In this document: one piece after another, positions 5,396 to 64,000 of the stretch | How the letters are laid out: each line of letters starts with the position of its first letter | Numbering within the stretch: position 1 is the first letter of the stretch | NCBI GenBank assembly: GCA_951812945.1 | Contig: CATOTB010000001.1 | Location: 488,198-552,197 of the forward strand | Length of the DNA: 64,000 nt | DNA from: Candidatus Dadabacteria bacterium | Lineage (GTDB): Bacteria; Desulfobacterota_D; UBA1144; Nemesobacterales; Nemesobacteraceae | Direction: 5' to 3' | Program-made: the position numbers and the translations under genes | The notes under the pieces: model-generated | Databases searched by the model: none | What the model was told of the DNA's origin: nothing | What the model saw: the letters and a program-made list of their open reading frames with translations, nothing else

Positions 5396-5405
5396 GCGCC
5401 CGGGC

Positions 5406-9785: not shown

Positions 9786-10793
9786 CTAAGGCAAGCGAAG
9801 TTTTTCAAAGTAAAGGTCTAGCAGATTCGCGGCTCCGGTATAGGGATCCGTTTTCCCTTCCATCACTTTTTTCTCCACTTCGCCGAGCGTTTTTTTGACC
9901 GAAACGTTTTCGTAAAAACTGTCCTCAAGATTCTGGATCAGTACCTCGTGCAGGCGGTATTTCGCCTGCTTTCTTCTTTTTTCCGCAAAGTATCCGTTTT
10001 CTCTGCAGAGTTTTTCATACTCCGTGACGCATTGCCAGATTTCCTTTATTCCGTAGCCCGTGACGGATGAGCAGGCGTGAGCCTTGGGAATCCATCCGGA
10101 TTCTGGCGGTCTGTGAAATCTCAGCGCCTCTTCCATCTCCTGTTTCATAAGCTCCGCTTTTTTCTTGTTTCTTCCATCCGCTTTGGTTATCAATACGGCG
10201 TCAGCGCGCTCGATTATTCCCTTTTTTATTCCCTGGATGTCATCTCCCGCCCCGGTAATCATGAGCAGCATGAAGAAATCGACCATTGAGTGGCAGGTAA
10301 TTTCGGACTGTCCAACTCCCACCGTCTCTATAAAGATCGTGTCGAATCCCGCCGCCTCGCAGAGAATCACGGCATCGCTTGTCTTTTTTGCAACTCCTCC
10401 CAGGGAACCGGCTGACGGGGAAGGCCTTATGTAGACGTTTTCGTGCCGGGAAAGTTCCTGCATTCTGAGCTTGTCGCCGAGAACGCTTCCTCCGGTTTCG
10501 CTGCTTGTGGGGTCAATTGCGAGCACCGCTATCTTTTTTCCGCGCTCGTGCGCCAGATAGAGACCCAGAGATTCTATGAAGCTGCTCTTTCCGACTCCCG
10601 GTATGCCCGTAATTCCTACTCTTATGGATTTTCCGGACCGTGGCAGACACCACGTGATTATTTCCCGCGCAAGCTTCTTGTGCTCAGGCAGGGTGCTCTC
10701 GGCGAGGGTTATCGCCCTGCTCAGAACGGGTATTTCTCCCTTGGCTATGCCCCGGCGGTAGGTTTCCGCTTCTGTCTTTCTGCGCGACGTCAT
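9786..10793 (-). CDS. meaB: methylmalonyl-CoA mutase-associated GTPase MeaB/ArgK
   Basis: P-loop GIPGVGKSS and MeaB family pattern; start overlaps the mutB stop. Confidence 0.88.
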
Positions 10794-14892: not shown

Positions 14893-15210
14893 CTGTTTCT
14901 GCCAACATACTGAAACTGTTTAAGTTTCAATTTTTCCCGTCTGTTATAGTTTAAAAGCTACTTTTGCCAAATTTAAAAGATGACTTTGCCCAAGTCTGCC
15001 CCTTCGTAATTCCCCGTTATTATTGAGCTTTTCCTCGGATATCCCGCTGACCAAGGCCAAAAATGGAAGTAGCGATTATATGGCGATTTTGGCTTTTTTA
15101 TAGCGCTTAAGATATCAAATTGCCCAAGAATCCGAAGAAAAAACCCGAAAAAAGACAGCAATATCAAGGCATTAAGCAAAAATAACACGAGCGCTATACA
15201 ATCGCTAGTT

Positions 15211-15352
15211 TTGTTTTGAAGGGACATTTTGAAGGGACAAGAAAAATAAGCGATATCAGGGAGGTATGAAGGGACAAGGGACAATGAAGGGACAACCGCT
15301 GTTTTTAGGTAATTTAAGCAGTTACTTAATTTTTTTGGGAAATTGTCCCTTT
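15211..15352 (+). repeat. array of GAAGGGACA(A) motifs (4 full + 1 partial direct, 1 inverted)
   Basis: direct copies at 15218, 15231, 15268, 15287 with a partial at 15277 and an inverted TTGTCCCTT at 15343. Confidence 0.7.
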
Positions 15353-15382
15353 AAGTTGACAGACTTTATTTAACGCAATTCG

Positions 15383-16684
15383 GTGTTATCCCGATTGCAA
15401 GAACGGGGCACCCTCCATTGCGTCCAGCGTCAAGACGATAAAATTGTCCTGTGGCGCGAGAAGCAGACGCGCCTGGCACAGAACAGGAGGCTCCGAGTCT
15501 CTGTGGATGCCGCCGCTATCATACTCTCGTCAGATAGCATAAAAGTCGGCGAGAGGATAAAAGTTTCCAATAACATTCTCGACAGTGAAACCGATTGGGA
15601 AGTCGCGAGGAAGGAGGAAACTTGCGACGTATTTATCCAACTCGAGCTCGTTCCTTTGCCCGACATTTATCTATCGGACCCCAGCGATCTTGACCGCCTG
15701 ACAGGAGAACTCAGTTATTTCCAGACACCTAGAAATCTCCACTTAAACGAGAGCTCCTTTAAGCCGCCTACTGACTTCTCTCAGACACATCTGGAACCAA
15801 TACGAAACCTGTTTGCGCAAACCAAGAGCGTCGGGTCGGGAGATGAAAGCGTCTTCGTCTGCGAATTAAGCTACGAGGTCCCTGCCGAAAATTACTCGGG
15901 AGCTCAAGTCTGGCTGGTTTTGGGGAACACCGGAACTCCTCAGCGAGTTACGGACGAAGGGCTGGTTGTTGACAGGCTCTCGACAACGTCACGAAAAGCT
16001 CGGTTCAACCTTCCTTTGGAGATCGCTTCCTATACGGTGGTCGTGTACTCAGTCTCGGAGAATAAGGAATTGCTCGGGTTTCCTGTTTCCTTTCTGGTAA
16101 ACACTACTCCGGTTGCAAGTGCCGGCACTGACAGGAGCGTAGGGGCTGGAGCATTCGTAATGCTAAATGGCTCAGGATCTCACGATCCGGATGGTGACAA
16201 TCTCACCTATTTCTGGGAACAGCTGTCGGGAGCGCCCGTATCGATCTCAAACCCGACCTCGGAGCGGGCCAGTTTTACGGCTCCTTCGACGAGCTCCAGC
16301 CACATCTTGGAATTTCAGCTGACGGTGAGTGATGGGACGACAAGTGCGACTGATTCCGTTGTGATCAATGTAGGGAGATATGTTCCGCCGCTTCCGCCCC
16401 AAGAACAGTGGGAACGACTTGGGGCCCCCACTGGGTTTCAGCGTTATTTTGAAGGGAGTCTGAATCAATCTCAGAGATACACCTGGAATCTTGTTCCTAA
16501 TGCTAGAGCTTACAGAATTAGCTACGTGCACGAAGGAAGCCGACGACAGAGCGACGTGGGAGAACCGCCTGCCGCCTTTCTTCAATCTGTACCATTCACA
16601 GGAGTGAGAATCCAGGCTCTCGCGAACGCTTCCTGGCTGCTAGGAACTATTCCATATCTTAATTCCGAGTGGACTTATTTGTGA
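15383..16684 (+). CDS. PKD-domain-containing hypothetical protein (GTG start, no signal peptide; possibly a gene fragment)
   Basis: PKD-like segment (AGAFVMLNGSGSHDPDGDNLTYFWEQLSGAP...FTAP...LTVSDG); start codon and N-terminus uncertain. Confidence 0.5.
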   Translation: MLSRLQERGTLHCVQRQDDKIVLWREKQTRLAQNRRLRVSVDAAAIILSSDSIKVGERIKVSNNILDSETDWEVARKEETCDVFIQLELVPLPDIYLSDPSDLDRLTGELSYFQTPRNLHLNESSFKPPTDFSQTHLEPIRNLFAQTKSVGSGDESVFVCELSYEVPAENYSGAQVWLVLGNTGTPQRVTDEGLVVDRLSTTSRKARFNLPLEIASYTVVVYSVSENKELLGFPVSFLVNTTPVASAGTDRSVGAGAFVMLNGSGSHDPDGDNLTYFWEQLSGAPVSISNPTSERASFTAPSTSSSHILEFQLTVSDGTTSATDSVVINVGRYVPPLPPQEQWERLGAPTGFQRYFEGSLNQSQRYTWNLVPNARAYRISYVHEGSRRQSDVGEPPAAFLQSVPFTGVRIQALANASWLLGTIPYLNSEWTYL

Positions 16685-16806
16685 GAACAAGACGTAGAAA
16701 AAGCGCTGTTGGGACGAAATGATCTCAAAGAATTTTCAGCATTAATCGGCTTTTTTAGTTAACATAACACCCCAGATTTTGTGAATTTCGTGGCAATTTC
16801 ATGTTA

Positions 16807-16814
16807 TAAATTTG
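16807..16814. repeat. 8-bp direct repeat TAAATTTG (putative target-site duplication, left)
   Basis: identical 8-mer immediately outside both terminal IRs. Confidence 0.5.
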
Positions 16815-16845
16815 GGGAATTATAAAGGAAAGTTGACAAAACTTC
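16815..16845. repeat. terminal inverted repeat (left) of the IS1595-family element
   Basis: 31/31 match to the reverse complement of 21812-21842. Confidence 0.7.
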
Positions 16846-16854
16846 GTAACTCAC

Positions 16855-17025
16855 TCATTTGACTTCAACAATTTTTGGGTTGCCTTTGCTGTCTTTTTGG
16901 AGGGAAAATCGGCGTTCTAAATCCTCTTTTTTCGGCTTCTTCGGACGCTCATGCTTTACCGGTCCCATGCCGAGCAATAGCTTGGCAGCCTCGTCTACCT
17001 GGTCCCATTCATCTTTCTTGCTCAT
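16855..17025 (-). CDS. small hydrophilic Lys-rich protein, 56 aa (below the ORF-track cutoff)
   Basis: hand translation MSKKDEWDQVDEAAKLLLGMGPVKHERPKKPKKEDLERRFSLQKDSKGNPKIVEVK; third in a co-oriented run of tiny ORFs. Confidence 0.35.
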   Translation of the reverse strand: MSKKDEWDQVDEAAKLLLGMGPVKHERPKKPKKEDLERRFSLQKDSKGNPKIVEVK

Positions 17026-17034
17026 TTGGTCTAC

Positions 17035-17283
17035 CTAAACTACATAAGACATTATGATTCCTGCGATAATCCCGCCCGTAAGGAGAATTAGGGGCCATGC
17101 TATTCCTATCGCAAGCACTGCGAGCATGTACAAAACGAAGCCCACGCCGAAGACTACCATGAGGGTTTGCTCAAAGCCTTTGTTTTCACCCCGCTGTTGG
17201 CGTTCCCAGTCCCTTCGCTTGGCGTTCCGCTTCAGGAGTTTCTGTCGCTTCTCATGCTCTTCCCATGTAAGTTTGCTTGCCAT
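17035..17283 (-). CDS. 82-aa small membrane protein (basic N-terminus, C-terminal TM hairpin)
   Basis: ORF with a Lys/Arg-rich N-terminal 40 aa followed by two hydrophobic helices. Confidence 0.45.
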   Translation of the reverse strand: MASKLTWEEHEKRQKLLKRNAKRRDWERQQRGENKGFEQTLMVVFGVGFVLYMLAVLAIGIAWPLILLTGGIIAGIIMSYVV

Positions 17284-17286
17284 CGT

Positions 17287-17505
17287 CTAAATTTCGACTA
17301 TTTCTTCCAAGCCCTCTCTGTGTGCCTTAATCTGGTCTTCAAACTCTTGGTTTGTAACTCTGTCCAGTATTTGCCCAATCTGAATCTGTCCTTTTGCCAG
17401 TCCTTTAATGCCAGACTCAATTCTGTCAAAGCGTTTGGTGAACTTCTCATCCAGTTCGTTTATTGCATCTAATACTTTTTTGTTATCGTCGTGAATGATT
17501 GACAT
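17287..17505 (-). CDS. 72-aa small acidic coiled-coil protein
   Basis: ORF; TATAAT box about 35 nt upstream on the minus strand; spaced 4 nt from the next ORF. Confidence 0.45.
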   Translation of the reverse strand: MSIIHDDNKKVLDAINELDEKFTKRFDRIESGIKGLAKGQIQIGQILDRVTNQEFEDQIKAHREGLEEIVEI

Positions 17506-17666
17506 GGTATTCTTGTCTCTGACACAGTTCTCTTATCTGTAATTATAGCCGGCAAAATTGGAACTGTCTGAGATTTGTTCCCCCTATTTTGGTTTTTCAG
17601 ATACGGAAACCATACCTGATTTTGCCGGCAAATTCAAGGTGTTAGAACCATCATTCTACTTCTACC

Positions 17667-18152
17667 TTACCGACTGCAAGTCCCACCTAAAAGGCTATCG
17701 TAGAACGAACTGCGACGGCAGGAAAGTTCAGGGTAGTCATCTGCACTGAAACCCTCGAAAGCTACCGTCCTTCCAGAAGCTAGCGACCAAGTGGCAAAGT
17801 AATTTCTAGACGGAAAGTCCATTGAGAGTCCGACGTATTCGTCTCCATACTGGTCTCGGTAGCCTGCTAGCATCCATGTTCCACTGGTTGTCCTGTCGTC
17901 AAAAAAATCCGTCAAGTAGGCGGCAACTGTACCGTCTTCGCAGAAAGCAAGGGCTTCATATACATCTTCGTCGTCACTACAGCTCCATATACCACTTCCC
18001 TGGATGAGAATCGCTGTGAGTTGAGCAATATCAGCGAGAGTCTCTTCACTCTCTCCTCCAGTTATTTCAGAAAATCCATCTGGAAGGTTATCTCCTCCCC
18101 CGCAACTGGTAACAAACACTAATACCAAGAAAAGAGACAAAATCGTCCTCAT
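17667..18152 (-). CDS. acidic Cys-containing lipoprotein, hypothetical
   Basis: lipoprotein signal LVFVTSC at the N-terminus. Confidence 0.6.
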   Translation of the reverse strand: MRTILSLFLVLVFVTSCGGGDNLPDGFSEITGGESEETLADIAQLTAILIQGSGIWSCSDDEDVYEALAFCEDGTVAAYLTDFFDDRTTSGTWMLAGYRDQYGDEYVGLSMDFPSRNYFATWSLASGRTVAFEGFSADDYPELSCRRSSFYDSLLGGTCSR

Positions 18153-18305
18153 AACATCCTCCTAAGTTTGGATTTGACCTCGGCAAAAAAGGGTGCCGGG
18201 CCTTGCTTACAACCAAAGAGACTTTGGACGTTCTGCTTATTTCCCAGACGGGTATTGTATTCACAGAGACCCGACAGGGCGGGTTCTCTTCAGTTGTAAG
18301 CAATT

Positions 18306-18334
18306 TTGACTATATCACAGAAGGGCGGTATAAT
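18306..18334 (+). promoter_or_regulatory. near-consensus sigma70 promoter TTGACT-N17-TATAAT driving the S1 protease gene
   Basis: hexamers and 17-nt spacer read directly. Confidence 0.5.
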
Positions 18335-18402
18335 CTATGAAAGTTTTAATCTTGTGAAACACCCCCTGCCGAGTACATTCTCCAAATTTGGCAAGTAAAA
18401 AA

Positions 18403-19212
18403 ATGAAAAGACATCTAATTATCGCAATTTTGGCAGTAATTCTTGTGGGAATTTATGCAGTGTTGCTACACGGAGAGACAAAGACACAAGCACGTGAAAT
18501 CCCAACCTCAAATATTCTGAACAGGATTCTCCCAATAAGAGTTGAGGTTAAAGAAGAATCTACTTTTAGAATTAACGAGGGAACAGTTTTCACAATAGAG
18601 GTGGATGGAAGACAATACTTGATAACTGCGAAGCATGTAACCAACCATCAAGCGGTGGAAGTGATAGAGATTTGGAGAAATGGTGGATGGACAGCAGTAA
18701 AGGTAAAAACCGTAGGAGTAGGGAAAGGAAATGAGGACATTATTGTATTAGCCGCAGATGAGAGACTAACTACCACCTTTGAAATAGAAATAGGGAGTGG
18801 CGGGATAGTATTAGGTCAAAATGTAAAATTCTTGGGATTCCCTCTCGATATTGAAGTATATATGACCCAAGCTAAGGAATGGAGAGTGCCTGTCGTAAAA
18901 GGCGGTATCCTTACCACAATTGAATCTGAGAAAGGCTCGTCCTGGTTGCTGGTAGACGGGCATGGCAACAAAGGATTTAGCGGAGGACCTGTAATATTCA
19001 AGCCACGTGAAGAAAACACTAAAACATGGAGGATTGCTGGAGTAATAAGCAGGTTTGAACCAGAAATCTTGTCTGTGATAGATAGCACAGGGAGAAAGAT
19101 AGAAGGCTTAGGGGTTGTAGGAAACTCCGGCATTATGGTGGCAACAGGAATTGAAGCAGCTTTGAAGCTAATTAAAGCAAACCCCATAGGATATCTCGTT
19201 AAAGAAAAGTGA
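18403..19212 (+). CDS. membrane-anchored trypsin-like (S1/chymotrypsin-fold) serine peptidase
   Basis: N-terminal TM anchor; catalytic His context TAKHV and Ser motif GFSGGPV; the track ORF begins at an upstream TTG (18388) and ATG 18403 is more likely. Confidence 0.7.
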   Translation: MKRHLIIAILAVILVGIYAVLLHGETKTQAREIPTSNILNRILPIRVEVKEESTFRINEGTVFTIEVDGRQYLITAKHVTNHQAVEVIEIWRNGGWTAVKVKTVGVGKGNEDIIVLAADERLTTTFEIEIGSGGIVLGQNVKFLGFPLDIEVYMTQAKEWRVPVVKGGILTTIESEKGSSWLLVDGHGNKGFSGGPVIFKPREENTKTWRIAGVISRFEPEILSVIDSTGRKIEGLGVVGNSGIMVATGIEAALKLIKANPIGYLVKEK

Positions 19213-19250
19213 ACGAAAGCCTAACTTACTAATATGACTAAACAATCTAC

Positions 19251-19258
19251 CCCCCCCC
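19251..19258 (+). repeat. homopolymeric C tract (C8 by the coordinate grid) in the 5' region of the methyltransferase gene
   Basis: read directly; lies between an upstream ATG (19235) and the conserved MTase N-terminal region. Confidence 0.6.
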
Positions 19259-19310
19259 TAAATCTAACTGGAAAGACAAGACAGTTTTTACGGGAGACAA
19301 TCTCCCCATA

Positions 19311-20480
19311 ATGCGCAGGATGAATTCCGACTGCGTAGACCTGATTTACTTAGACCCCCCTTTCAACAGCAAAACAAACTATGCTGCACCTATTGGTAGT
19401 CATGCGGCCGGTGCCGAGTTTAAGGATACTTGGACTCTCTATGACATAGATATTGTCTGGCTTGATTTACTTGAAGCCAAGCATCCAGCACTCAATCGAG
19501 TTATTCACGCTACTTTGACCAAGAGTGATAAATCTTATCTGATTTACATGGCGATTAGGTTGCTGGAAATGAGGCGGATACTGAAACCGGCCGGAGGCAT
19601 TTATCTTCACTGTGACCCAACAATGAGTCACTATTTGAAGCTGGTAATGGATGCTATATTCGGAAGAGAGAATTTTAGAAATGAAATTATTTGGGCTTAC
19701 ACGGGGCCAGGGTCTCCCAATATGAGGCAGTTTAACCGCAAGCACGATGTGATCTTCTGGTACTCAAACGGTGAAGACTGGACATTTAATGGGGATGCTG
19801 TTCGAGTATTGCATAAAAAACCTATTGGGGCTGGAGGCACATCTACAAAATGGCTGAAAGAGAAAGAAGATTTGGCGGAAAAATACAAAGGCGGGAAGAT
19901 TCCCGAGACATGGTGGACGAGGTTTTCTCCTGTCGGAAGGATTAAGGGAGAACGCACTGGTTATCCCACACAGAAACCGAGAAAGTTGTTAAAGCGAATA
20001 ATTGAAGCTAGTAGTCCAAGAGGGGGCATTGTATTTGACCCATTCTGTGGTTGTGCTACGACCTGCATAGCCGCAGAGGAATTAAACCGGCAATGGATAG
20101 GAATTGATATCTCGCCCAAAGCGGCGGAACTTGTACAAACCAGAATACTGAATGAACTAGGTTTTGCTGGACGTGAACATCAGATAATTCACCGCCAGGA
20201 CATTCCACAGAGAACAGATTTAGGAGAGATTCCAAAGTACAACTGTAAGGAGAACAAGAACAGATTGTATGGAGAGCAAGGTGGGCATTGCAACGGATGC
20301 AGAGAACACTTCCAAATGCGTCATTTAGAAGTGGACCACATCATTGCTCGCTCACAGGGTGGCACAGACCACATTGAGAATTTGCAAATGCTCTGTGGAA
20401 ACTGCAATCAGATTAAAGGCAATCGTGGACACGAGTACCTGTTGGCAAGAATGGAAGGGAGAAAAGTACCCTACGCATGA
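19311..20480 (+). CDS. beta-class DNA methyltransferase (DPPF motif IV preceding FDPFCG motif I) fused to a C-terminal HNH endonuclease domain
   Basis: DLIYLDPPF, FDPFCGCATT, then HLEVDHIIARSQGGTDHIENLQMLCGNCN; the conserved N-terminal region extends upstream of ATG 19311 and is frame-linked to ATG 19235 only if the C tract changes length. Confidence 0.85.
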   Translation: MRRMNSDCVDLIYLDPPFNSKTNYAAPIGSHAAGAEFKDTWTLYDIDIVWLDLLEAKHPALNRVIHATLTKSDKSYLIYMAIRLLEMRRILKPAGGIYLHCDPTMSHYLKLVMDAIFGRENFRNEIIWAYTGPGSPNMRQFNRKHDVIFWYSNGEDWTFNGDAVRVLHKKPIGAGGTSTKWLKEKEDLAEKYKGGKIPETWWTRFSPVGRIKGERTGYPTQKPRKLLKRIIEASSPRGGIVFDPFCGCATTCIAAEELNRQWIGIDISPKAAELVQTRILNELGFAGREHQIIHRQDIPQRTDLGEIPKYNCKENKNRLYGEQGGHCNGCREHFQMRHLEVDHIIARSQGGTDHIENLQMLCGNCNQIKGNRGHEYLLARMEGRKVPYA

Positions 20481-53836: not shown

Positions 53837-55373
53837 ATGCACGAGGAAACGGAGTTCAAGCTCTCCCTTTCGCCCGCAGTGGCGAATCGGATTTTGCGTT
53901 ACAAGGGACTCAGGCCCCACCGCAAGGGCCGCCGTGTAAAGCACCGTTTAGTAAGCACCTACTTCGATACTCCCCGCCACGCGCTAAGAAAATCCGAGAT
54001 AGTGCTTAGGGTGCGCGATAACGGCAAGGGCAGGGAACAGACTGTAAAGGCGCCGTTCCAGGGTCCCGCGGGCCTTCAGAATTTCCGTGAATGGACCGTG
54101 GCGGTAAACGGTGACTGTCCGAATCTTTGTGCCGTGGACGACCCTGCGCTCGCGCGCAAGCTCTCCCGCGGGCGTTACGAAAAGCGCCTAAGCCCTCTGT
54201 TCACCACTGACTTTGAGCGCGAAGCAGTTCGCATAAGGGTCCGGGGCACCGAATTCGAGCTTGCGGTTGATCAAGGGATCATTCGCGCCGAAACGCGCGG
54301 GGGGGACAGTTGAGGAACCCATATGCGAAGCGGAATTCGAACTGCTCTCAGGGGACCCGGCGCGGATGTTCGATGTGGCTCTTGAACTCTGCGAGGCTTA
54401 TGACATACGCCTCGGCCACCTTACCAAGGCGCAAAGGGGCTACGCACTCACGAGACCGGCGCTCCGTCCCAGACCCTGCAAGGCCCCGAAGGTTGTGCTC
54501 ACGGAGGAGATGAGCGTAGGAAAGGCGTTTAACTTCATCATTGCCGGCGCGCTTGAGCACATGTTTGCAAACGAGACCCCGACCCTGGAGGGAAGGGCGG
54601 AGGGGGTCCACCAGACGAGGGTGGCCATGAGGCGCGTGCGCGCGGCGCTTCGGGCTTTCAAGAGAATACTTCCGTACGACAAGCGAAAGGCGTTTAACGG
54701 AGAGTTCCGCTGGTTCCAGCAACGACTGGCCCCGGCCCGCGACTGGCAGGTCTTTTTGAGCGAAACGCTTCCAAAGATAGCCGCTGCCGCTCCCGAGCAG
54801 GAAGAAGCGATAAAGCGCCTTCGGCGCATCGCGCGCGCCGAGCGCCGCCGCGCCGTGGGAGACGCTGCCGCTTACCTTGATAGCCGCCGCTACGCCCGGC
54901 TGCTTCTTCAGTTCGAGCGATGGATCGCGTCTGTGGAGAAGGAGGTCGGCTCAAAGACTTTCGACGAGCCCGTAAAGCCGTTTGCAAGAAGCGTCCTCAG
55001 GAGAACGTGGCGCTATTTCCTTGAGGATACGAGGCCTCTTTCACGCCTTCCTGACGAGGATCTTCACGAAATAAGAAAACGGGGGAAAAAGGCCCGCTAC
55101 GCAACGCAGTTTTTCAACTCGCTCTGGACCGGTTCCCGGGTTCCGCCCTTCATGAAGCTCATGGGACGCTTCCAGGACAGCCTTGGAAAGACAAATGACG
55201 CGATAGTGGCGCGGCACATCCTGGCGGCGGTTAAGCCGGGGAGGCTCGATCCCTCGGTAATCCATCTTGCGCAGGAGTGGTCCCAGGCCCGGGTGAGAAA
55301 ATGCCTTCGCACGGCGCAGCCGCAGTGGAGGCGCCTCGGGAGAGTTGCGCCGTTTTGGGAGGCGGCGGAGTGA
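53837..55373 (+). CDS. CYTH-CHAD domain protein interrupted by a frameshift in a G7 tract (two ORFs: 53837-54313 and 54261-55373)
   Basis: the CYTH domain continues across the frame change (…AVDQGIIRAETRGG | TVEEPICEAEFELLSGD…); CHAD domain in the second ORF. Confidence 0.6.
54299..54305 (+). repeat. homopolymeric G7 tract at the CYTH-CHAD frameshift site
   Basis: read directly. Confidence 0.7.
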
Positions 55374-55461
55374 GTCCCGCTTTTCACGTGGAGAAGAATT
55401 ATGTAAACTCACGGATTGTGGGTGTTAAGACGCTGTATGTTGTTTCCCCAGGAGGTTACAG

Positions 55462-57621
55462 ATGGCTTCTTCTATAACGGACATCTCGAGCAAGAGGGCC
55501 CCTGCCGGTTTTTCCAAAAAGGAAAAATATCTTAACAGGGAGCTTTCTTGGCTTGACTTTAACCTTAGGGTTCTTGAGACGGCGGCAGACAAGAAGGTTC
55601 CGCTTCTTGAGAGGGTGCGCTTTCTCTCCATCTCCGCTAGCAACCTCGATGAGTTCTACATGGTCAGGGTGGCGGGTCTTGCGGGACAGGTTATGGAGGG
55701 AGTTACAGATCGCAGCAAAGACGGCCTTACTGCGTCGCAGCAGCTTGAAGCGATAAGGGAGAAGGTGCACTTCCTGCTTGACAGCCAGTACGAGTGCGAA
55801 AAGGACTTGTTTTCCCTCTGCAAGAAGGCCAAGATCAAGATCGTAACTCCCGAGAAACTCGACCGCTCGGGCGCCAGATGGCTTTCCGAGTGGTTCTCTA
55901 AAAAGCTTTTTCCGGTGCTTACCCCGCTTGCCATAGACCCAGCGCATCCGTTTCCCTTCATACAGAGTGGGAGCCTTGTGTGCGCCGTGCAGCTGAGCCG
56001 CGCCGAGGACGGAAAGCGCATGAAGGGTCTCATAATTCTGCCTTCTCAGGTTGAGCGCTTCATAAGGGTTCCGGGAGGAAAAAAAACCCAATTTGTCCCG
56101 ATCGAGAAGGTCATCGAGCACAACATGAAATCCCTTTTCCCGGGTTTTGAAGTGGATGACAACGGGATCTTCCAGATCACCCGAGACAGCCTTCTTGAGA
56201 TAGACGAAGACGCGGAAGATCTGGTCGAGACGTTTGAAACTGCCCTTAAGCAGCAACGCAGGGGAGGGTCAGTGATCAGGGTTGACGTCAACGCGGACAT
56301 GCCGGATGCGATCGTCAACTTCATAATGGACAAGCTTGAGGCCAGTGACGCGCATTTTTTCAGAATCAAGGGGATGCTCGGGCTTGAAAGCGTGAAACAG
56401 ATAATACTCGATGAGCGAAGCGACCTTCTTTACAAGCGCATGAGTATCCGCTACCCCGAGCGGGTCAGAGAATTCGGAGGCGACGTGATAGCCGCCATAC
56501 GGCAGAAGGATTTCGTCGTTCACCATCCCTACGAGAGTTTCGACGTCGTCGTTGAGTTCCTCAAGCAGGCAGCCGAGGATCCGGCGGTCGTTGCGATCAA
56601 GCAGACGCTTTACCGCACCTCGGAAGACTCTCCGATAGTGAAAAGGCTCATAGAAGCTGCTGAGGCCGGAAAATCCGTAACTGCCATGGTGGAGCTCAAG
56701 GCCCGTTTCGATGAGGAGGCCAACATCCGCTGGGCGCAACGCCTCGAGGATGCGGGAGTCCAGGTTGTGTTCGGATTCATTGACCTTAAAACACACGCCA
56801 AGGTATCGCTGGTAGTGAGAAGGGAAGGTTCTGACATCCGTACCTACACCCACTATGGCACCGGCAACTATCACCCCGTAAACGCCAAGATATACACAGA
56901 CCTCAGCTACTTCACAGCCGACGAGGCGCTCGGCCGCGACGCCGCCAAGCTTTTTAACTACATGACCGGCTATGCCACTCCGAAGAAGATGGAGAGGATA
57001 TTTTTCTCTCCCGTCACGATGCGCCCGAAGGTGCTTGAGCTTATAAGGGACGAGATAGACCATGCGAAGGCCGGCCGCCCCGCGGTGATATGGGCCAAGA
57101 TGAATTCCCTTGTGGACAGCAAGATAATAGACGCGCTTTACGCGGCGAGTTGCGCGGGGGTAAGAATTGAGCTTTTCGTTCGGGGAATATGCTGCCTGAG
57201 GCCCGGGGTGCCGGGGCTCTCCGAGAATATCAGGGTAAAGAGCATTGTGGGGCGTTTCCTTGAGCACAGCAGGGTTATCTGCTTTGGCGCCGGGGAGGGG
57301 CTTCCTTCTAATGCCTGCAAGGTCCTCATCTCGTCTGCGGACTGGATGCCCCGTAATCTTGACCGCAGGGTGGAGTCGCTTGTTCCAATTGAAAACGCCA
57401 CGGTGAAAAAGCAGCTTGTCGAGCAGGTGATGGTTGCTAACCTAAATGATGTCGCGAACAGCTGGGAGATGCTCCCTGATGGTTCTTTCCGCAAGCTAAA
57501 AAGCGATTCGGACAGTTTTTCGGCTCATAAATACTTTATGACCAACCCCAGTCTTTCAGGAAGAGGCAAAGCGCTTGCCAAATCCCGGCCGCAAATGCCG
57601 GCTGAGTTTGTGCAGGAATAA
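55462..57621 (+). CDS. ppk: polyphosphate kinase 1
   Basis: 719 aa; PPK1 N, head and two PLD-like C-terminal domains. Confidence 0.93.
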   Translation: MASSITDISSKRAPAGFSKKEKYLNRELSWLDFNLRVLETAADKKVPLLERVRFLSISASNLDEFYMVRVAGLAGQVMEGVTDRSKDGLTASQQLEAIREKVHFLLDSQYECEKDLFSLCKKAKIKIVTPEKLDRSGARWLSEWFSKKLFPVLTPLAIDPAHPFPFIQSGSLVCAVQLSRAEDGKRMKGLIILPSQVERFIRVPGGKKTQFVPIEKVIEHNMKSLFPGFEVDDNGIFQITRDSLLEIDEDAEDLVETFETALKQQRRGGSVIRVDVNADMPDAIVNFIMDKLEASDAHFFRIKGMLGLESVKQIILDERSDLLYKRMSIRYPERVREFGGDVIAAIRQKDFVVHHPYESFDVVVEFLKQAAEDPAVVAIKQTLYRTSEDSPIVKRLIEAAEAGKSVTAMVELKARFDEEANIRWAQRLEDAGVQVVFGFIDLKTHAKVSLVVRREGSDIRTYTHYGTGNYHPVNAKIYTDLSYFTADEALGRDAAKLFNYMTGYATPKKMERIFFSPVTMRPKVLELIRDEIDHAKAGRPAVIWAKMNSLVDSKIIDALYAASCAGVRIELFVRGICCLRPGVPGLSENIRVKSIVGRFLEHSRVICFGAGEGLPSNACKVLISSADWMPRNLDRRVESLVPIENATVKKQLVEQVMVANLNDVANSWEMLPDGSFRKLKSDSDSFSAHKYFMTNPSLSGRGKALAKSRPQMPAEFVQE

Positions 57622-57625
57622 CTCT

Positions 57626-59154
57626 ATGACAGAAATTTCTTCCTCCGCCGCGCCCTTCGGCAAGGTCGGAACCGCGGCCGTAATAGACGTAGGATCAAAC
57701 TCCATACGTCTTGTGATCTACAAGGGCCCGAGGCGCGCCCCGCTTCCAATACTTGATGAGAAGGTTTCCTGCGGCTTGGGGCGCGGGATGGACTCTCGGG
57801 GCAGGATGTCTCCGCAGAGCATGGATCTCGCCCTGCGAACTGTAAGCCGCTTTGTCGATATCGCGCGCTCGATGAAGGTTTCCGGAATAAAGGCGGTTGC
57901 CACCGCCGCGGTGAGAAACGCCTCAAACGGCTCCGACTTCAAAGAGGCTGTTGAGCAGCAATGCGGGATTTCACTTCGGGTGCTCTCTGGCATGGACGAG
58001 GCAAGGCTTTCCGCGCTCGGTACTCTCTGCGCCATTCCTGACGCTGACGGCGTAATGGGGGATATAGGCGGCGGAAGCCTTGAGTTGGTAGAGATTTGCG
58101 AAGGGGAATTAGGAAACCACGCCACGTTACCGCTTGGCACGATCCCGCTTCTTGAAAGCGGCCTGAGTCCCGTAAAGGCCCGAAAGAAACTGATTGTCCC
58201 CCTCCTTGACGAGCTTTCCTGGCTTGAGAACGCGAAAAAGAAAACCTTCTACGCCGTCGGGGGTTCGTGGCGAGCTCTTGCTAAAAAACACATGGAATCT
58301 GAGGATTATCCGCTTCGCATAGTTCACGGCTACAGTCTTTCGAGATCCAAGGCGGTTGAGATGTCCGGGAGATAGCCGAGATGTCTTCGGGTTCGCTTCA
58401 GGATCTCTGGACCCTGGGGCGAAACAGGGTGGAGTCCGCTCCCTACGCCGCCACGCTTATGAAGAGTCTTCTGAAAAAAACGGGCGTTAACAACCTCATG
58501 TTTTGCACGTACGGGCTTCGGGAGGGATGTATATACGACGATCTTTCCCCGGAGCAGAGTTCTCTGGATCCGCTGGTTGTCATGTGCGAGGAAATCGCCC
58601 TTAAGATGGGAAGGTCCGTTGAGGACGGCAAGGCTTTCTGCAAGTGGATAGAGGCGGCAATTCCAGATAAATACGCCGGAGACTCGAGGCTTAGGCTCGC
58701 CGCATGCCATCTCTCGGACATAGGAATTTCCGAGCATCCGGAATACCGGGCGGAGCAGGTGTTTTTAAGGATACTGCGGATGCCGCTTGTGGGAATCACT
58801 CATCCGGAGAGGGTGAAGGTGGCTCTCTCGGTATCTTCAAGACACGCGGCAATAGGAAACCTGATTCGCCGCTGGGAAGTTTCCGGGTTTCTTTCCAATG
58901 ATGATGTGGAGGAAGCCAGGGTTACGGGGCTTGCTCTTCGTCTGGCTTACACGGTCTCGGGAGGGGTGGCGCGGATTCTTGAGAGTACCAGGCTTGAGAG
59001 AGCCGGGAAAAAGCTTGCTTTGCATATGCCTGGCCAGATTCCTCACCCGGAAACCGTCGGTCGCCGTCTGGGGGCCCTTGCAAAGGCCGTCGGATGCGAT
59101 TATGAGACGATTGCGCGGGATCAAGCTAATGAAACCGCTGGGTGGGGAACTTAG
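57626..59154 (+). CDS. ppx: Ppx/GppA-family exopolyphosphatase, split into two ORFs by a frameshift near 58345-58395 (57626-58375 and 58381-59154)
   Basis: N-terminal actin-like Ppx-GppA domain (VIDVGSNSIRLVIY) in ORF 1; the continuation (…GLREGCIYDDL) and HD-like region in ORF 2 are in another frame. Confidence 0.65.
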
Positions 59155-59203
59155 ATTCGTGTAGAATTCCCTCTGACTTTTAGCTGTTTGCTGGTCGGAT
59201 CTG

Positions 59204-60106
59204 ATGAATTTACTTGACGCAATAGACAACCTGAATATCTGGAAGCAAGGGGACAAAAGAGCTCCTCACAAGCCTCTACTTCTTCTATATGCGCTCGCTG
59301 AACAAGTCCGAAATCCAGACGCTAGGTTTGAGTTTTTTCGTATAGAAGAAAATATTGATCAGTTATTAAATGATTTTTACAAATCATTTCCCGGACGCAG
59401 ACACCATGTAAATGATCCTTTCTGGCGCCTTCGCGGGGATGGAATCTGGAAAGTAGAATCCGACGGAATAATAAGGGAAACCAGTTCAGGAGGTGCTTAT
59501 GTAAGCGATTTAAGGAAATACAATGCTACGGGTTCGTTTTCTAAAGGGGTTGTTCAAGAGATAAGAAATAATCCTGAAGTTGCTTTGCAGGCCGCACGGA
59601 AACTGCTTAATGAACATTTTCCCGAATCATTGCATCAAGATATACTGGAGACTGTAGGATTAGATTACAAGACAATTTCTGCTAAAGAATACATTTCTAA
59701 AAAAACTAAAAGAGACAGTACATTTCGGCAGAAGGTTCTTCACGCCTACGGTTACAGTTGTGCGGTGTGCGGGTTTAATCTGCGCATGAAAACTCTTCCT
59801 GTCGGACTGGAAGCGGCGCATATCAAGTGGCATCAGCATGGAGGACCAGATGCTGAAAACAACGGACTGGCACTATGCGCCACGCACCACAAGTTGCTTG
59901 ACTCGGGGGTGCTGGCACTCTCTGACAATTACCAAATCATTCTTTCAGAGTGGATATTTGATCCCGACCGAAAAAACAGTTTTATACGGGAGCATCATAA
60001 CCGTGAAATCAGATTGCCTAGGAACAGCAACCATTTGCCCAAAATGGATTATATCCGCTGGCACAGAAAAGAAGTGTTTAAAGAACCCGAACTAGTTTTG
60101 ATTTAG
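59204..60106 (+). CDS. McrA-like HNH endonuclease with an uncharacterised N-terminal domain (candidate modification-dependent restriction enzyme)
   Basis: C-terminal HNH: CAVCGF...LEAAHIKWHQHGGPDAENNGLALCATHHKLLDSG; N-terminal domain with KAPHKPLLLLYAL; AT-rich. Confidence 0.65.
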   Translation: MNLLDAIDNLNIWKQGDKRAPHKPLLLLYALAEQVRNPDARFEFFRIEENIDQLLNDFYKSFPGRRHHVNDPFWRLRGDGIWKVESDGIIRETSSGGAYVSDLRKYNATGSFSKGVVQEIRNNPEVALQAARKLLNEHFPESLHQDILETVGLDYKTISAKEYISKKTKRDSTFRQKVLHAYGYSCAVCGFNLRMKTLPVGLEAAHIKWHQHGGPDAENNGLALCATHHKLLDSGVLALSDNYQIILSEWIFDPDRKNSFIREHHNREIRLPRNSNHLPKMDYIRWHRKEVFKEPELVLI

Positions 60107-60539
60107 TAGTACTAAGTGAAATAAATTCTCAAATCTGATTGCGAGATGCGGCAATACGAAGAAAAAGCCTTTTTTGATTCTTGAGATACTGCCAAGATAA
60201 AGTGATAGCAACAATCTGTATGGAACTTTCAACGTCGCAACAATCTCTGGGCATGCCAAGTCTTAATCGTGCATGGTTGCTTGGAATCTTGGCCAACATC
60301 TCTTCATGAGATCGTTGCCGATGTACTGTGATAAAAGGAATTTGAATTGTTCGGTATGTACTTCTTTAAGCTTATTACCAAACGAATGATCAAGGCATGT
60401 GTAGGCAGTTCCTCAAAACACCGAAAAGAACTGACAAAGGAGATGCCGCTTGGAAACAAATGGGTGGTTTAGGGCGGCATTACAGTTGTTGCCACCATGC
60501 TGGAGAGAACCCTGACGAGGCAAACACAGGAGTATTGCG

Positions 60540-61586
60540 ATGAATCGAACGAAAGTATTTCTTGATTCCAACATCTTAATCCAAGCGGGGAAACCACCGG
60601 GTGGGCCGGTCCTCGAACGGTTGAAGCATTTGGTTAATGCCGGTCTTGTAACTGTGCTGACCACGGATCTGACCTGCCGGGAGGTTGCGAAGAAGCATAC
60701 TGAAAACGACTACAATGTCATAAAAGAAGTTGGACAACCTCATTTCCGCAATATAGTTAAGGACATACTGGGCACCAAGTTTCCCAAAATCACTAAAAGC
60801 AAACTGAAAACCAAACTTGCCAAGTCATACAGGCAATCCACCGAGGCTATGCTCACTGAGCTCAACTGCAGAATGCTGAAAATTGACGATATTAAACCTT
60901 CCAAAGTGTTATTTTCTTACACTAACGGAGAGGGGTTCTTTGCTGGAGAGGCAAAAAAGGAACAATTTCCCGACGCTTTTATCTTCGAGTGTCTCAAGGC
61001 CGAAGCGTCAGGGGAAGAATCGATTATAGTTGTCTCGAATGACCGTGATTTCAAAAAACCGGTCGAGGATGAGGCTCACATCTCGCTCGTGAAATCCTTG
61101 CCCGAACTCTTTGAAAGGATGGGTCTTAAAATTGACGCACCCGACATGGAGGGTTTCCTTGAGTGTCATGAGGGTAAGTTGTTTGAAGCGGTCAACGAAG
61201 AGTTGAATTGCTGGGGATTCGTTGGAGATGTTCCAGACTCCGAGATTGAAGAGACAACAGTAACTGATGTGAGAGTAATTAAACTCGCAAGTTTCGGGTC
61301 GACTGAGAAAAGAGGCTCAATTCTGATAGTCGGTCGTCTCCATGTGAGAGCGGAGATTTCATATGCCCATCCGGACTGGGATACCGCAATGTACAGCGAC
61401 GACGATATCCTTGTCTGGATTAATGATGAGCGCGTGAGTGGCGAGACTGAAGTCGGCTTCAATGTGGATGTGTCGATGTCGGTAGCGGTGGATAAAAACG
61501 ACAATCCCAAGAGCATTGAAGAACTGCGTTTCCTAAACGGCGACTTTCAGCATATCGAGCTCCACAGTGATCATTATCACGATTAG
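60540..61586 (+). CDS. PIN-like nuclease domain protein with C-terminal domain of unknown function
   Basis: PIN signature acidic residues (VFLDSNILI ... IVVSNDRDF); GGAG RBS. Confidence 0.55.
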   Translation: MNRTKVFLDSNILIQAGKPPGGPVLERLKHLVNAGLVTVLTTDLTCREVAKKHTENDYNVIKEVGQPHFRNIVKDILGTKFPKITKSKLKTKLAKSYRQSTEAMLTELNCRMLKIDDIKPSKVLFSYTNGEGFFAGEAKKEQFPDAFIFECLKAEASGEESIIVVSNDRDFKKPVEDEAHISLVKSLPELFERMGLKIDAPDMEGFLECHEGKLFEAVNEELNCWGFVGDVPDSEIEETTVTDVRVIKLASFGSTEKRGSILIVGRLHVRAEISYAHPDWDTAMYSDDDILVWINDERVSGETEVGFNVDVSMSVAVDKNDNPKSIEELRFLNGDFQHIELHSDHYHD

Positions 61587-61642
61587 CGGAAACGCAGTCT
61601 GGGAAAAACAATGTCTTGCGTCAATCAACATGACTCAAGTTT

Positions 61643-62293
61643 ATGAACAGGGTAAAATCCTCTGGATTCCAGGTTGAGGTATGGATTAACATGTTGCCCG
61701 ACTTTCCTAAGATAAAGAAAGACATCCATAAGAAATTGCTTATCCCATATGCCAAGCACAAGAGGGCATCACGTCTGGGGATTTTGAACCAAATGACCTT
61801 AATAAAAGTGCATGAAGGCAATAATAGTCGGATCCTCAGAAGCGACAAAACTCAAGATACGGCGAGACCGAATGATATTTCAGGAAGCTTTTCATATGAA
61901 CTTTCCGATATAAAAGATATGACGATAGAAGATGTTTTTAGGAATATAGACGATGCAACGGAAGAGCTTACTATTAAACTGATTGATCATGTCGTGAATA
62001 AAGTCGAAACCGTCTGCGAAGAAACGGGCAACGTACTAAATCTTAACAACAAGAAATTTACCGCCGTTCACTACCTTGAACTTCTTGAAAAACTTGAAAT
62101 AAGATTCGATTGTAACGGAGATCCGATTTTGCCGGATGCTCTTGTGGGTGCTTCACTTGATCCAAAGGCTATAAAAGAAGAGATGCAAAAAACACAAAAG
62201 GATGAAACGCTTCGAAAAAGATTTGCCGAAATCATAAGCAAGAAAAGAGAAGAGCATAATGCTAGAGAGGGTAATAGAGAACTGGTTAGATAA
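61643..62293 (+). CDS. hypothetical protein (probable start ATG 61691)
   Basis: ORF overlapping the downstream gene by 35 nt; no family I recognise. Confidence 0.4.
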   Translation: MNRVKSSGFQVEVWINMLPDFPKIKKDIHKKLLIPYAKHKRASRLGILNQMTLIKVHEGNNSRILRSDKTQDTARPNDISGSFSYELSDIKDMTIEDVFRNIDDATEELTIKLIDHVVNKVETVCEETGNVLNLNNKKFTAVHYLELLEKLEIRFDCNGDPILPDALVGASLDPKAIKEEMQKTQKDETLRKRFAEIISKKREEHNAREGNRELVR

Positions 62294-63926
62294 CGTGACG
62301 GAAAGATCGTTTGAGAACTCTTTTTGTCACATGCTTGCTTACCGAGGCTACACCGTTTTACACAAGACCAGGCATACCGGACTGGAAATGGGCAAGGATG
62401 TAATTGCCGTAGCGGAAGACGGCGTCCCTTGTGTTTTTCAGTTGAAAACCGCGGTGAACGGAACCATAAAACAGCGATACTGGACTGATAACATACAGAA
62501 TCAAGTTATTACGATGATCAATACCAAACCGATCCATCCAGCTTTGAAAGACTATAGCCACCACAGATCTTATTTTGTTACGAACGGAAAAATAGAAGAA
62601 GAGGTAACGCGGCAGATAGATGATTTAAACAGAAGGTTTGAAGCTCAGGGATGTGGACATAAAAAATTGGAAGTAATTGTCAAAGGTCAGTTGTCGGCAT
62701 GGGCAAAAGAACTGGAAACGGACTTGTGGCCGTCGGAACTGACAGACGTTCGGCTGCTTCTTGAACTCTTTCTTGAAGATGGAAAAGATGTTCTTGATAA
62801 AGCAAAGCTGTCCCGGCTTCTTGAGGCCTGCGTTAATTTTGAAAGCCATCCGAATAAAAAGGAGTCGAAAAGAGCAGTCTCGAGTTTAGCCCTCTTAAAC
62901 GCTGTTGCCGTAAGCAACTATTCGAACTCGAAGAACTACGTTGCCGAGATTGAAGCATGGGTGATCTACATGTCTTATTTATTTGCTTATGCTGAAAAAT
63001 GGAAAATTGGAAAGAAAATCTGGTCTGAAGAATTTAACATTGCGAAGAATTATATTGGTCAGCTTCTGGGAGAGCTTTATAAGGAAGTAAAATCCTCCAA
63101 ATTTTATATCGAGGGTGACCCAAGCACAGAACCATTTCTTATTTACCCTATACGGATTACATACTTGATTTCTCTTATGAGCATTTTCTCTTTATGGGCT
63201 GAATGTGAAAATTTTGACGACAATGAAGAAATAAATGAGTTCTGCAGGGAGTTCTGTTTAAAAAACAAAGACTATATGCTTTTGTGGGGAGAGGCCGCTG
63301 TACCTCAGTACTTATCATTCTACTGGTATTACAGCAAAATTGACGCAACCATCTCACCCTCTAATTTCTTATTAGGTGCTATTGGACAAATTATTGCGTT
63401 AAACAAGCCCAAGAACTTGCCAAAACAAGAAAATGTTTTCAGGGGAAACGAACACTTGTACCTTCCGCAAAACGATGGGATAGCGAACGCTTATTACAAT
63501 TCTAATGAATTATTGCCATATCTGCTCGGAATAAACGATGAACCGATTGAGGATCATTTTTTAGAACGCTCCCAAACTTTATGGGCTTTAATTGAGATTT
63601 ACGTCCGCTTGAATTTTCAAAGACCGGTATTCATGTTCTGGAAAGATGCAACATACATTAGCGAGGTTGAATTCAAGCCCAAATACAAATGGCATTTCTT
63701 TAGATGGAAAAATGATGAGGGAGAAGTGGTAGAAGAACAGAAAAATGGGCAAAAATGGCCTGAATTAAGAAAGCAAGTTCAAGAAATTGATTACAGGAAT
63801 ATTCCAGAAAAATTCAAGAAAGAACCTATATTGTTTTTGTTGTTTTTATGTGTATATCCCCATCGCATCTCTACTTCAATTGTGAAATGGCTTGATAGCG
63901 AAATCCGTGAACAAGAAACTGATTAG
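62259..63926 (+). CDS. protein with N-terminal Mrr-like PD-(D/E)xK nuclease domain and about 450-aa C-terminal region of unknown function
   Basis: FENSFCHMLAYRGYTVLHKTRHTGLEMGKDVIAVAEDGVPCVFQLK fits the Mrr_cat pattern (D...D/E-x-K as GKDVIA...FQLK); remainder has no family I recognise. Confidence 0.5.
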   Translation: MLERVIENWLDNVTERSFENSFCHMLAYRGYTVLHKTRHTGLEMGKDVIAVAEDGVPCVFQLKTAVNGTIKQRYWTDNIQNQVITMINTKPIHPALKDYSHHRSYFVTNGKIEEEVTRQIDDLNRRFEAQGCGHKKLEVIVKGQLSAWAKELETDLWPSELTDVRLLLELFLEDGKDVLDKAKLSRLLEACVNFESHPNKKESKRAVSSLALLNAVAVSNYSNSKNYVAEIEAWVIYMSYLFAYAEKWKIGKKIWSEEFNIAKNYIGQLLGELYKEVKSSKFYIEGDPSTEPFLIYPIRITYLISLMSIFSLWAECENFDDNEEINEFCREFCLKNKDYMLLWGEAAVPQYLSFYWYYSKIDATISPSNFLLGAIGQIIALNKPKNLPKQENVFRGNEHLYLPQNDGIANAYYNSNELLPYLLGINDEPIEDHFLERSQTLWALIEIYVRLNFQRPVFMFWKDATYISEVEFKPKYKWHFFRWKNDEGEVVEEQKNGQKWPELRKQVQEIDYRNIPEKFKKEPILFLLFLCVYPHRISTSIVKWLDSEIREQETD

Positions 63927-64000
63927 GGCGGACATTGCGGATATTTCAGAAGGTTATGGGGCAGAGCAATGCCAGTCAGATTTTCTCGTTGTATTTTCGT

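Follow-up and report, generated by a model that had tools for sequence, protein, structure and literature searches.

A mobile two-gene nuclease cassette, a candidate anti-phage system, in a probable mosaic defence island of a Candidatus Dadabacteria bacterium

The 3' end of the 64,000-nucleotide window analysed here (contig CATOTB010000001.1 of a Candidatus Dadabacteria bacterium) carries four co-oriented open reading frames (ORFs) in a low-GC region adjoining the polyphosphate gene ppx, all of them present as an earlier, preliminary description of this DNA had listed them: gene 1 at 59204-60106, gene 2 at 60540-61586, gene 3 at 61643/61691-62293 and gene 4 at 62259-63926. We find that only genes 3 and 4 co-occur in other genomes, and that the uncharacterised element is therefore a mobile two-gene cassette (61653..63933, plus strand; 2.28 kb) rather than a four-gene locus. 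Gene 4 encodes a predicted PD-(D/E)xK endonuclease and gene 3 its obligate smaller partner, and we consider the pair a fair candidate for a new two-gene anti-phage system inside the island. The region as a whole is, on balance, probably a horizontally assembled defence island in which three independent modules adjoin by chance. The preliminary description had taken the four genes as one unnamed system; gene 1 proves to be a known single-gene system and gene 2 a solitary family, each separate and without co-occurrence, which largely refutes the four-gene claim. Candidate nuclease systems are common; this one stands out for its clear definition, wide conservation and ease of testing: a portable obligate pair that lies outside the domain and defence databases, spans several bacterial phyla and one archaeal-labelled contig, is small enough for direct cloning and, if active, would constitute a new nuclease-plus-partner immune module.

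A fixed gene pair in a mobile cassette

The borders of the cassette are sharp. Its span, which extends from 38 nt 5' of the gene-3 ATG to 7 nt 3' of the gene-4 stop codon, is exactly the stretch over which the window shares 92% nucleotide identity with loci L001/L003, L035 and L036; the flanks of L001, L035 and L036 are unrelated to those of the window and, upstream of the cassette, are also unrelated to each other. At its 5' end lies a short leader (61652..61690, plus strand), in which a TAAAAT hexamer of -10-like character is accompanied by the partial palindrome CCTCTGGATTCCAGGTTGAGG and by a ribosome-binding site, GAGG. This leader is kept in all four close copies and the sequence 5' of it differs, so far as sequence can tell a possible sign of a promoter and operator travelling with the cassette. 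A promoter-like match is found at 61630-61658, and matches of this kind are no more frequent in the region than expected from shuffled sequence. The first 28 nt of the leader also recur, as a 71%-identical copy, inside gene 4 (63087-63114).

Within the cassette, the two genes share a 35-nt dual-coding overlap (62259..62293, plus strand), which the preliminary description had already reported and which is borne out here; it encodes the gene-3 C-terminus, REGNRELVR followed by the stop codon, together with the gene-4 N-terminus, MLERVIENWLD. In all 33 independent loci examined, which comprise 28 full-length genome loci and contig look-ups as well as one metagenome contig (L039) and one viral contig (L110), a gene-3 homologue of 193-200 amino acids (aa) stands directly upstream of gene 4 (co-occurrence 100%), and the gene-3 stop lies exactly 35 nt past the gene-4 start, over a range of identities from 97% down to ~25%. 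The pair is found in Poribacteria, which hold the majority, and in Thermodesulfobacteriota, Hydrogenedentota, Chloroflexi, Acidobacteriota and Proteobacteria, as well as on one contig labelled by NCBI as a Woesearchaeota archaeon and on one viral contig. The gene-4 start codon, be it ATG, GTG or TTG, keeps its fixed position, with the exception of L028/L029, where a Leu codon occupies the aligned position and the sole listed start is 60 nt upstream. Because the start codon position is kept in nearly all loci and no fusion-length homologue occurs among those listed, we consider a programmed frameshift that would yield a gene 3-gene 4 fusion unlikely. The most plausible interpretation of the overlap is that two separate proteins are translationally coupled, an arrangement fixed by the dual coding of two conserved termini, and obligate pairing and fixed overlap together fit both translational coupling and a protein complex. 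Over the same genomes gene 3 retains 26-31% identity and gene 4 41-46%, so that gene 3 diverges faster, as partner or antitoxin-like components often do.

All-against-all clustering of neighbouring genes, together with the ORFs abutting gene 3 in L033, L034 and L110, yielded no third conserved gene beside the pair. In tblastn searches, homologues of genes 1 and 2 were likewise absent within 10 kb of genes 3-4 in the 29 genome loci and in the other look-up loci, L039 excepted, and genes 3-4 are present at only one of 71 metagenomic gene-2 loci, again L039. This contig is 97% identical to the window at the nucleotide level over 60513-64000 (genes 2-4 and beyond), and at such identity it represents the same recent arrangement rather than independent evidence. 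Since the identity begins at 60513, gene 1 and most of the spacer between genes 1 and 2 are missing from L039, where their place is taken by, among others, an SNF2 helicase and an uncharacterised 566-aa protein. Of the suggestion that the gene set might recur elsewhere as a conserved block, what stands is the pairing of genes 3 and 4, seen in every locus examined; genes 1 and 2 do not belong to such a block.

Genes 3 and 4 have no family match in Pfam, NCBIfam, PADLOC-DB 2.0.0 (2023), PHROGs or PDB sequences. The four-gene combination had not been recognised as a named system, an impression that PADLOC-DB 2.0.0 upholds for genes 2, 3 and 4, which match no family at E<=1, and overturns for gene 1, which matches its HNH and mREase_IV models.

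The gene-4 endonuclease and its gene-3 partner

Gene 4 (62259..63926, plus strand) encodes a protein of 555 aa with 423 detectable homologues of ~530-560 aa, all called hypothetical and none with a Pfam domain. Its N-terminal part (62259-62723, plus strand) is a predicted PD-(D/E)xK endonuclease domain, in which the core fold is present and the catalytic motif E-x-G-K-D...Q-x-K is invariant: E43, D47, Q61 and K63 are unchanged in sets of 35 and of 15 sequences, down to 25% identity. In the AlphaFold model, residues 1-155 have a predicted local distance difference test (pLDDT) score of ~90, and the closest structural matches of the domain are FokI, BspD6I, AspBHI and MspJI. With this domain, the HNH motif of gene 1 and the PIN domain of gene 2, the three nuclease folds earlier recognised in the locus are all confirmed. 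The remainder of gene 4, a mostly helical region of ~400 aa (62736-63923, plus strand), is modelled with confidence over residues 180-340, resembles only generic helical-repeat structures (alpha-solenoid and designed-repeat proteins) and has no match to any PDB sequence. Compared with FokI/MspJI/AspBHI/Mrr-type enzymes, gene 4 differs in having its nuclease domain at the N- rather than the C-terminus, in carrying after it these ~400 helical residues without a known reader domain, and in its obligatory small partner gene.

That partner, gene 3 (61691..62293, plus strand), encodes 200 aa. The length had previously been put at 200-216 aa, and both ORF starts behind that range do exist; we place the true start at 61691, since MLPDFP opens every homologue and the upstream ATG, at 61643, falls outside the conserved cassette. 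These first six residues (61691-61708) are almost invariant across phyla, whereas the rest of the protein is only ~25-30% identical, a pattern that suggests that the free N-terminus of the gene-3 protein may itself be functional. Its confident predicted model (pLDDT 86.6) pairs a long, basic helix at the N-terminus and two helices at the C-terminus with a short hairpin, a central helix of 34 residues and a small alpha/beta unit; the core of the protein is acidic and its C-terminal helix conserved.

The gene-3 fold is novel and possibly HK97-like, and may derive from capsid proteins. It can be imagined, as a conjecture to which we attach a low probability, that gene 3 is a cut-down HK97-fold (capsid/encapsulin-like) sensor decoy, captured or displaced during phage head assembly by the major capsid protein, scaffold, protease or portal, with the result that the gene-4 endonuclease is unleashed. 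None of 60 gene-3 family members matched a capsid or encapsulin Pfam family (top 25 families, E<=1), the gene-3 protein of the window had no capsid/encapsulin-type match in PHROGs or PDB sequences, and a literature search on capsid-fold components in defence systems returned nothing relevant. If true, a domesticated capsid-fold decoy would add a new type of infection sensor.

We propose that gene 4 acts as a metal-dependent DNA endonuclease, whose FokI/MspJI-type head probably pairs with a second copy for double-strand cuts. Both the helical C-terminal region of gene 4 and the gene-3 protein, translated together with it, would restrain or direct this activity, until an infection cue that acts on either of the two releases the nuclease to cut DNA, whereupon the invader would be restricted or the infection aborted. 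The model builds on features that the data show, namely the fold and invariant catalytic motif of gene 4, the obligate pairing with its fixed overlap, the mobility of the cassette and its defence-island neighbourhoods; which DNA is cut, whether gene 3 inhibits or senses, what triggers release and how the infection ends are the elements that we infer.

Genomic context and competing explanations

The pair resides in defence-island neighbourhoods. The 115 nearest neighbours at 30 gene 3-gene 4 loci included nine type ISP restriction-modification (R-M) genes, three cyclases of the cyclic-oligonucleotide-based anti-phage signalling system (CBASS), each with a 2TM/Cap15 effector, and three Septu PtuA genes, as well as three SLFN_AlbA_2 genes (at the threshold used), two Mrr_cat genes and two AbiEii-type ATPases. 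Mobile-element settings are represented by the conjugative elements of L001, L035 and L032 and by a prophage-like region in L034; gene 4 is present on none of 72,556 plasmids and on one among 2.9 million viral contigs.

In Poribacteria, the pair lies just downstream of a ~1,600-aa type ISP R-M gene on the same strand, at a distance of 28-105 nt in L012, L014, L019, L023, L024 and L030 and of 0.8-4.9 kb in L008, L013, L015 and L020, with other genes inserted between the ISP gene and the pair in some genomes. There, the ISP gene and gene 4 are equally diverged, with a median identity of 67% for both. We considered the type ISP enzyme as a subunit of the pair and rejected it: because the upstream recurrence is confined to Poribacteria and the divergence runs parallel with that of gene 4, it looks like part of an old shared island and not like a subunit. 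The enzyme and the pair may have a functional link.

The pair is concentrated in metagenome-assembled genomes (MAGs) of lineages known as sponge symbionts, namely Poribacteria plus one with a Dadabacteria label (genome loci L005-L024 and P0125). The copies most closely related to that of the window come from Thermodesulfobacteriota and Dadabacteria-type MAGs, which hints at exchange of the pair within one habitat. In the closest relatives (L001 11803-12703; L035 12371-13271; L036 2866-3766), the cassette is followed by a 156-aa SocA/Panacea-domain gene overlapping a 148-aa gene, a module that looks like a toxin-antitoxin (TA) pair and that the window lacks 3' of its cassette. On the same conjugative element of L001, positions 14253-20000 encode a 1,915-aa protein with HTH_upst_double_PIN, PIN-TPR-GreABC and permuted GreAB-C domains, and a HicB-like antitoxin gene follows. 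Furthermore, an SLFN_AlbA_2 gene, sometimes with HATPase_c_4, occurs 0-3 kb downstream of the pair in L007, L010, L023/L002 and L039, across two phyla. L039 served as our guide to what probably follows the window edge, and since this 97%-identical contig carries such a gene (10480-11655, minus strand), an SLFN_AlbA_2 gene probably lies, on the opposite strand, just past the end of the window; going by L039, GC would climb back to ~54% some 2.5-3 kb further downstream.

A number of observations weigh against reading the pair as a new defence system. The functional case for genes 2, 3 and 4 is one of guilt by association only. Poribacteria supply most of the loci, and the island there seems to be vertically inherited; because this phylum dominates and the ISP and gene-4 sequences diverge in parallel, the neighbour counts are not independent, one old island being counted repeatedly. 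Novelty is judged against PADLOC-DB 2.0.0, a release that dates from 2023, and the pair may have been described since. Gene 4 scores 14.5 bits with Pfam Mrr_cat (PF04471) against a cut-off of 21, and only five of 35 family members match that profile at E<=0.5. With the cut-off missed, we take gene 4 to have an Mrr-type fold and chemistry and not membership of the Pfam family, so that the Mrr-like PD-(D/E)xK N-terminus assigned to it earlier holds for the core fold and catalytic signature and fails at the level of the Pfam threshold. In addition, the C-terminal 215 residues of gene 4 (beyond 340) are poorly modelled, and no domain typical of DNA binding or of antitoxins, be it of the helix-turn-helix (HTH), ribbon-helix-helix (RHH) or AbrB type, was recognised in gene 3.

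The layout of the pair also invites a different interpretation, as a TA (addiction) module in which gene 3 would neutralise the gene-4 nuclease and the pair would stabilise integrative and conjugative elements, plasmids or islands instead of sensing phage. A small, faster-evolving upstream gene that overlaps a larger nuclease gene, a palindrome in the conserved leader at the position expected of a TA operator, and close copies in conjugative elements beside the SocA/Panacea antitoxin-domain module are all in line with addiction, which we nevertheless regard as rather unlikely, given the lack of a recognisable DNA-binding antitoxin domain in gene 3, the absence of any copy from the plasmids searched and the chromosomal, stably inherited state of the Poribacteria pair beside the type ISP enzyme. 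The two explanations overlap, because TA-like architecture and anti-phage function are mutually compatible. Indeed, the pair resembles two-gene TA-like abortive-infection modules in coupling a small upstream gene to a larger effector, in its mobile cassette and defence-island location and in its faster-evolving partner; it differs from them in that the gene-3 partner is large, at 200 aa, without an HTH/RHH-type DNA-binding domain, and the gene-4 effector far exceeds classical toxins in size. To a similarly small degree we credit a heteromeric restriction endonuclease, of type IV/modification-dependent or type IIS-like character, that would attack foreign DNA directly, with gene 3 or the helical domain as reader and without a trigger or abortive infection. 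The best matches of the nuclease domain are type IIS or modification-dependent enzymes, the cassette is devoid of a methyltransferase, as expected for type IV, and BspD6I provides a precedent for a nuclease of large and small subunits; however, no known DNA-reader domain (SRA, winged helix, sulfur-binding domain (SBD) etc.) was detected in either protein, the proteins of both families tend to be acidic (median pI 5.6-5.8), and the helical region is more like a protein-protein scaffold. As a further lead only, Lamassu LmuA-type effectors join an N-terminal restriction-like nuclease to a helical body, and some subtypes include a small accessory protein. Neither the cassette nor its surroundings contain an SMC-like ATPase (LmuB), and the PADLOC models for Lamassu match neither gene 3 nor gene 4, even at E<=1. 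The resemblance of the pair to known systems is confined to the restriction-type nuclease head and the TA-like gene layout.

A role unrelated to defence, be it as a DNA repair or recombination factor or as a component of element transfer, we deem very improbable: the distribution is patchy and non-core, the cassette is mobile and low in GC, its neighbourhoods feature R-M, CBASS and Septu genes, and there is no link to a particular transfer or repair gene. A housekeeping role for the pair is unlikely. Least credible, and by our estimate scarcely worth entertaining, is the notion that the four genes form one multi-nuclease defence system acting as a unit. The genes are co-oriented, closely spaced and all low in GC, no terminator-like sites separate them, and genes 2, 3 and 4 occur together in L039 as well; yet L039 is a 97%-identical, non-independent copy that lacks gene 1, the pair occurs without adjoining gene 1 or 2 in 29 genome loci and gene 2 without genes 3 and 4 in 70 of 71 loci, sharp homology borders of its own set off each module, and the gene-1 family works as a single protein (PMC7461809). 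Neat runs of co-oriented genes in defence islands can arise as insertion accidents.

Genes 1 and 2 and the surrounding island

Gene 1 (59204..60106, plus strand; 300 aa) adds a new member to the known family of SBD-HNH phosphorothioate-dependent restriction endonucleases of the EcoWI/SprMcrA type. It had been credited with a novel N-terminal domain; because NCBIfam NF045808 (PT-DNA_restrict) matches it end to end (322.6 bits, cut-off 180; residues 2-293 versus profile positions 2-284 of 284), that domain is not novel, and it corresponds to the SBD of ScoMcrA-type enzymes (~residues 1-160; 59204..59683, plus strand, from alignment with ScoMcrA). Residues 20-154 align with ScoMcrA 115-248 (PDB 5ZMM/5ZMO), such that the sulfur-cavity residues H116-R117-P118 and P165 find their equivalents in H22-K23-P24 and P72, and Lys at ScoMcrA position 117 is the usual variant among homologues (PMC6224610). 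The HNH nuclease motif (residues 186-239; 59759..59920, plus strand) scores 40.2 bits with Pfam HNH_2 against a cut-off of 21, and comparison with TagI (6GHS) reveals conservation at the AAH206, N219/N220 and H228/H229 positions. Gene 1 therefore shares with EcoWI and SprMcrA a two-domain SBD-HNH layout of ~300 aa without an SRA domain, and has the H-K-P and P residues of the sulfur cavity and an intact HNH motif. It differs from ScoMcrA in an Arg (Arg75) in place of Ala168 and, a point that counts against modification dependence, in the column of the Tyr164 'lid', which is occupied by Asp71 in a pairwise HMMER alignment where a one-residue shift is possible. With Asp at the lid position, phosphorothioate dependence of the gene-1 protein is likely, though not certain. 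EcoWI, SprMcrA and relatives of the two-domain type cut phosphorothioate-modified DNA as single proteins, and in vivo EcoWI blocks dnd+ plasmids (PMC7461809). In the manner of EcoWI, SprMcrA and ScoMcrA, the SBD of gene 1 would recognise phosphorothioate-modified foreign DNA and the HNH domain would cut nearby.

Gene 2 (60540..61586, plus strand; 348 aa) is a stand-alone predicted nuclease of the DUF4935/PIN_12 family. Its PIN-like N-terminus, proposed from the letters alone, is fully supported by Pfam PF16289 (100 bits, cut-off 32; residues 6-171 versus profile positions 1-172 of 172), which delimits a PIN domain at 60555-61052 (plus strand) with acidic residues D9, E48, D145, D168 and D170 invariant in 38 homologues. 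An exhaustive search returned 80 cluster representatives at E<1e-30, of which the full-length ones, of ~325-360 aa, align end to end and the remainder are shorter fragments. The C-terminal domain (residues 200-348; 61137-61583, plus strand) is strongly acidic (pI 4.4, net charge ~-21; family medians 4.6 and ~-29), has no known relatives and is possibly nucleic-acid-mimicking or autoinhibitory. A survey of PIN-like domains by Matelska et al. (2017) described DUF4935 proteins as ~350 aa in length, of unknown function and usually monocistronic (PMC5499597). Gene 2 conforms to this VapC-like PIN group in its length, N-terminal PIN domain, conserved acidic residues, unassigned alpha/beta C-terminal half and monocistronic arrangement, with no structural difference.

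No conserved neighbour of gene-2 homologues emerged from 21 loci with adequate flanks, sharing being confined to near-identical contigs, and no PADLOC-DB 2.0.0 family matched gene 2 at E<=1. Around its homologues lie SIR2-pAgo, Thoeris ThsA/ThsB, Hhe, Mokosh and CBASS phospholipase effector genes and several PADLOC candidate systems, and one among 2.9 million viral contigs carries the gene. Given unshared neighbours and defence genes in the surroundings, we regard gene 2 as a solitary gene living in defence islands, a link that to our knowledge is absent from the family's published description. Its acidic active site is intact, and gene 2 is probably a one-gene defence or abortive-infection nuclease; the data tie the DUF4935/PIN_12 family to defence islands and suggest that it may act in single-gene defence. 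In L037 (Sphingobium plasmid pSH2 and relatives, which are conjugative sphingomonad plasmids), a PIN_12 gene at 4897-5871 lies directly 3' of a gene whose annotation reads CBASS cGAMP-activated phospholipase; an AbiEii toxin gene is close by, and the annotations listed nearby include no cyclase.

The low-GC island (59161..64000) reaches from ~7 nt past the ppx stop codon to the window edge. The drop in composition that first drew attention to it is real, and less deep than the mid-30s then estimated: the island has 41.9% GC, compared with 50.2% in the remaining window and 54-56% in the flanking ppk/ppx, and only the final kilobase of the window falls to 37-38%. By gene, the values are 42.6% (gene 1), 46.3% (gene 2), 38.5% (gene 3) and 39.4% (gene 4). 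Low GC, mosaic borders (every module is found again elsewhere between other flanks) and the defence-gene surroundings of the gene-2 and gene-3/4 homologues lead us to a horizontally acquired defence island, a proposal of the preliminary description that thus survives.

One such module border is the 433-bp non-coding spacer between genes 1 and 2 (60107..60539), which contains no Rfam match, terminator-like site or convincing ORF. The island region as a whole has no terminator-like sites, its promoter-like sites do not exceed shuffled-sequence expectation, and a non-coding RNA scan gave just one sub-threshold match, to a snoRNA model. Scans of the module borders for att-like or attC-like repeats, insertion sequence ends or a nearby tRNA found none. 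We also rejected an integron cassette array, as the spacers lack attC-like imperfect inverted repeats after the ORFs; the conserved 3' border of the cassette, merely 7 nt beyond the stop codon, speaks against integron cassettes too. None of the four genes encodes a convincing transmembrane stretch, the maximum 19-residue Kyte-Doolittle mean being 1.7, in gene 4.

Upstream, the island is flanked by CYTH, CHAD, ppk and ppx genes, a polyphosphate gene cluster (53837-59154) that represents its native flank; the overlapping CYTH and CHAD ORFs may be one CYTH-CHAD protein. The ppx gene that directly adjoins the island (57575-59154) is split into two ORFs in different frames, with the Ppx-GppA domain (57575-58375) breaking off at position 218 of its 285-position profile and Ppx_C following at 58381-59154, which suggests a frameshift, as a pseudogene or a sequencing error.

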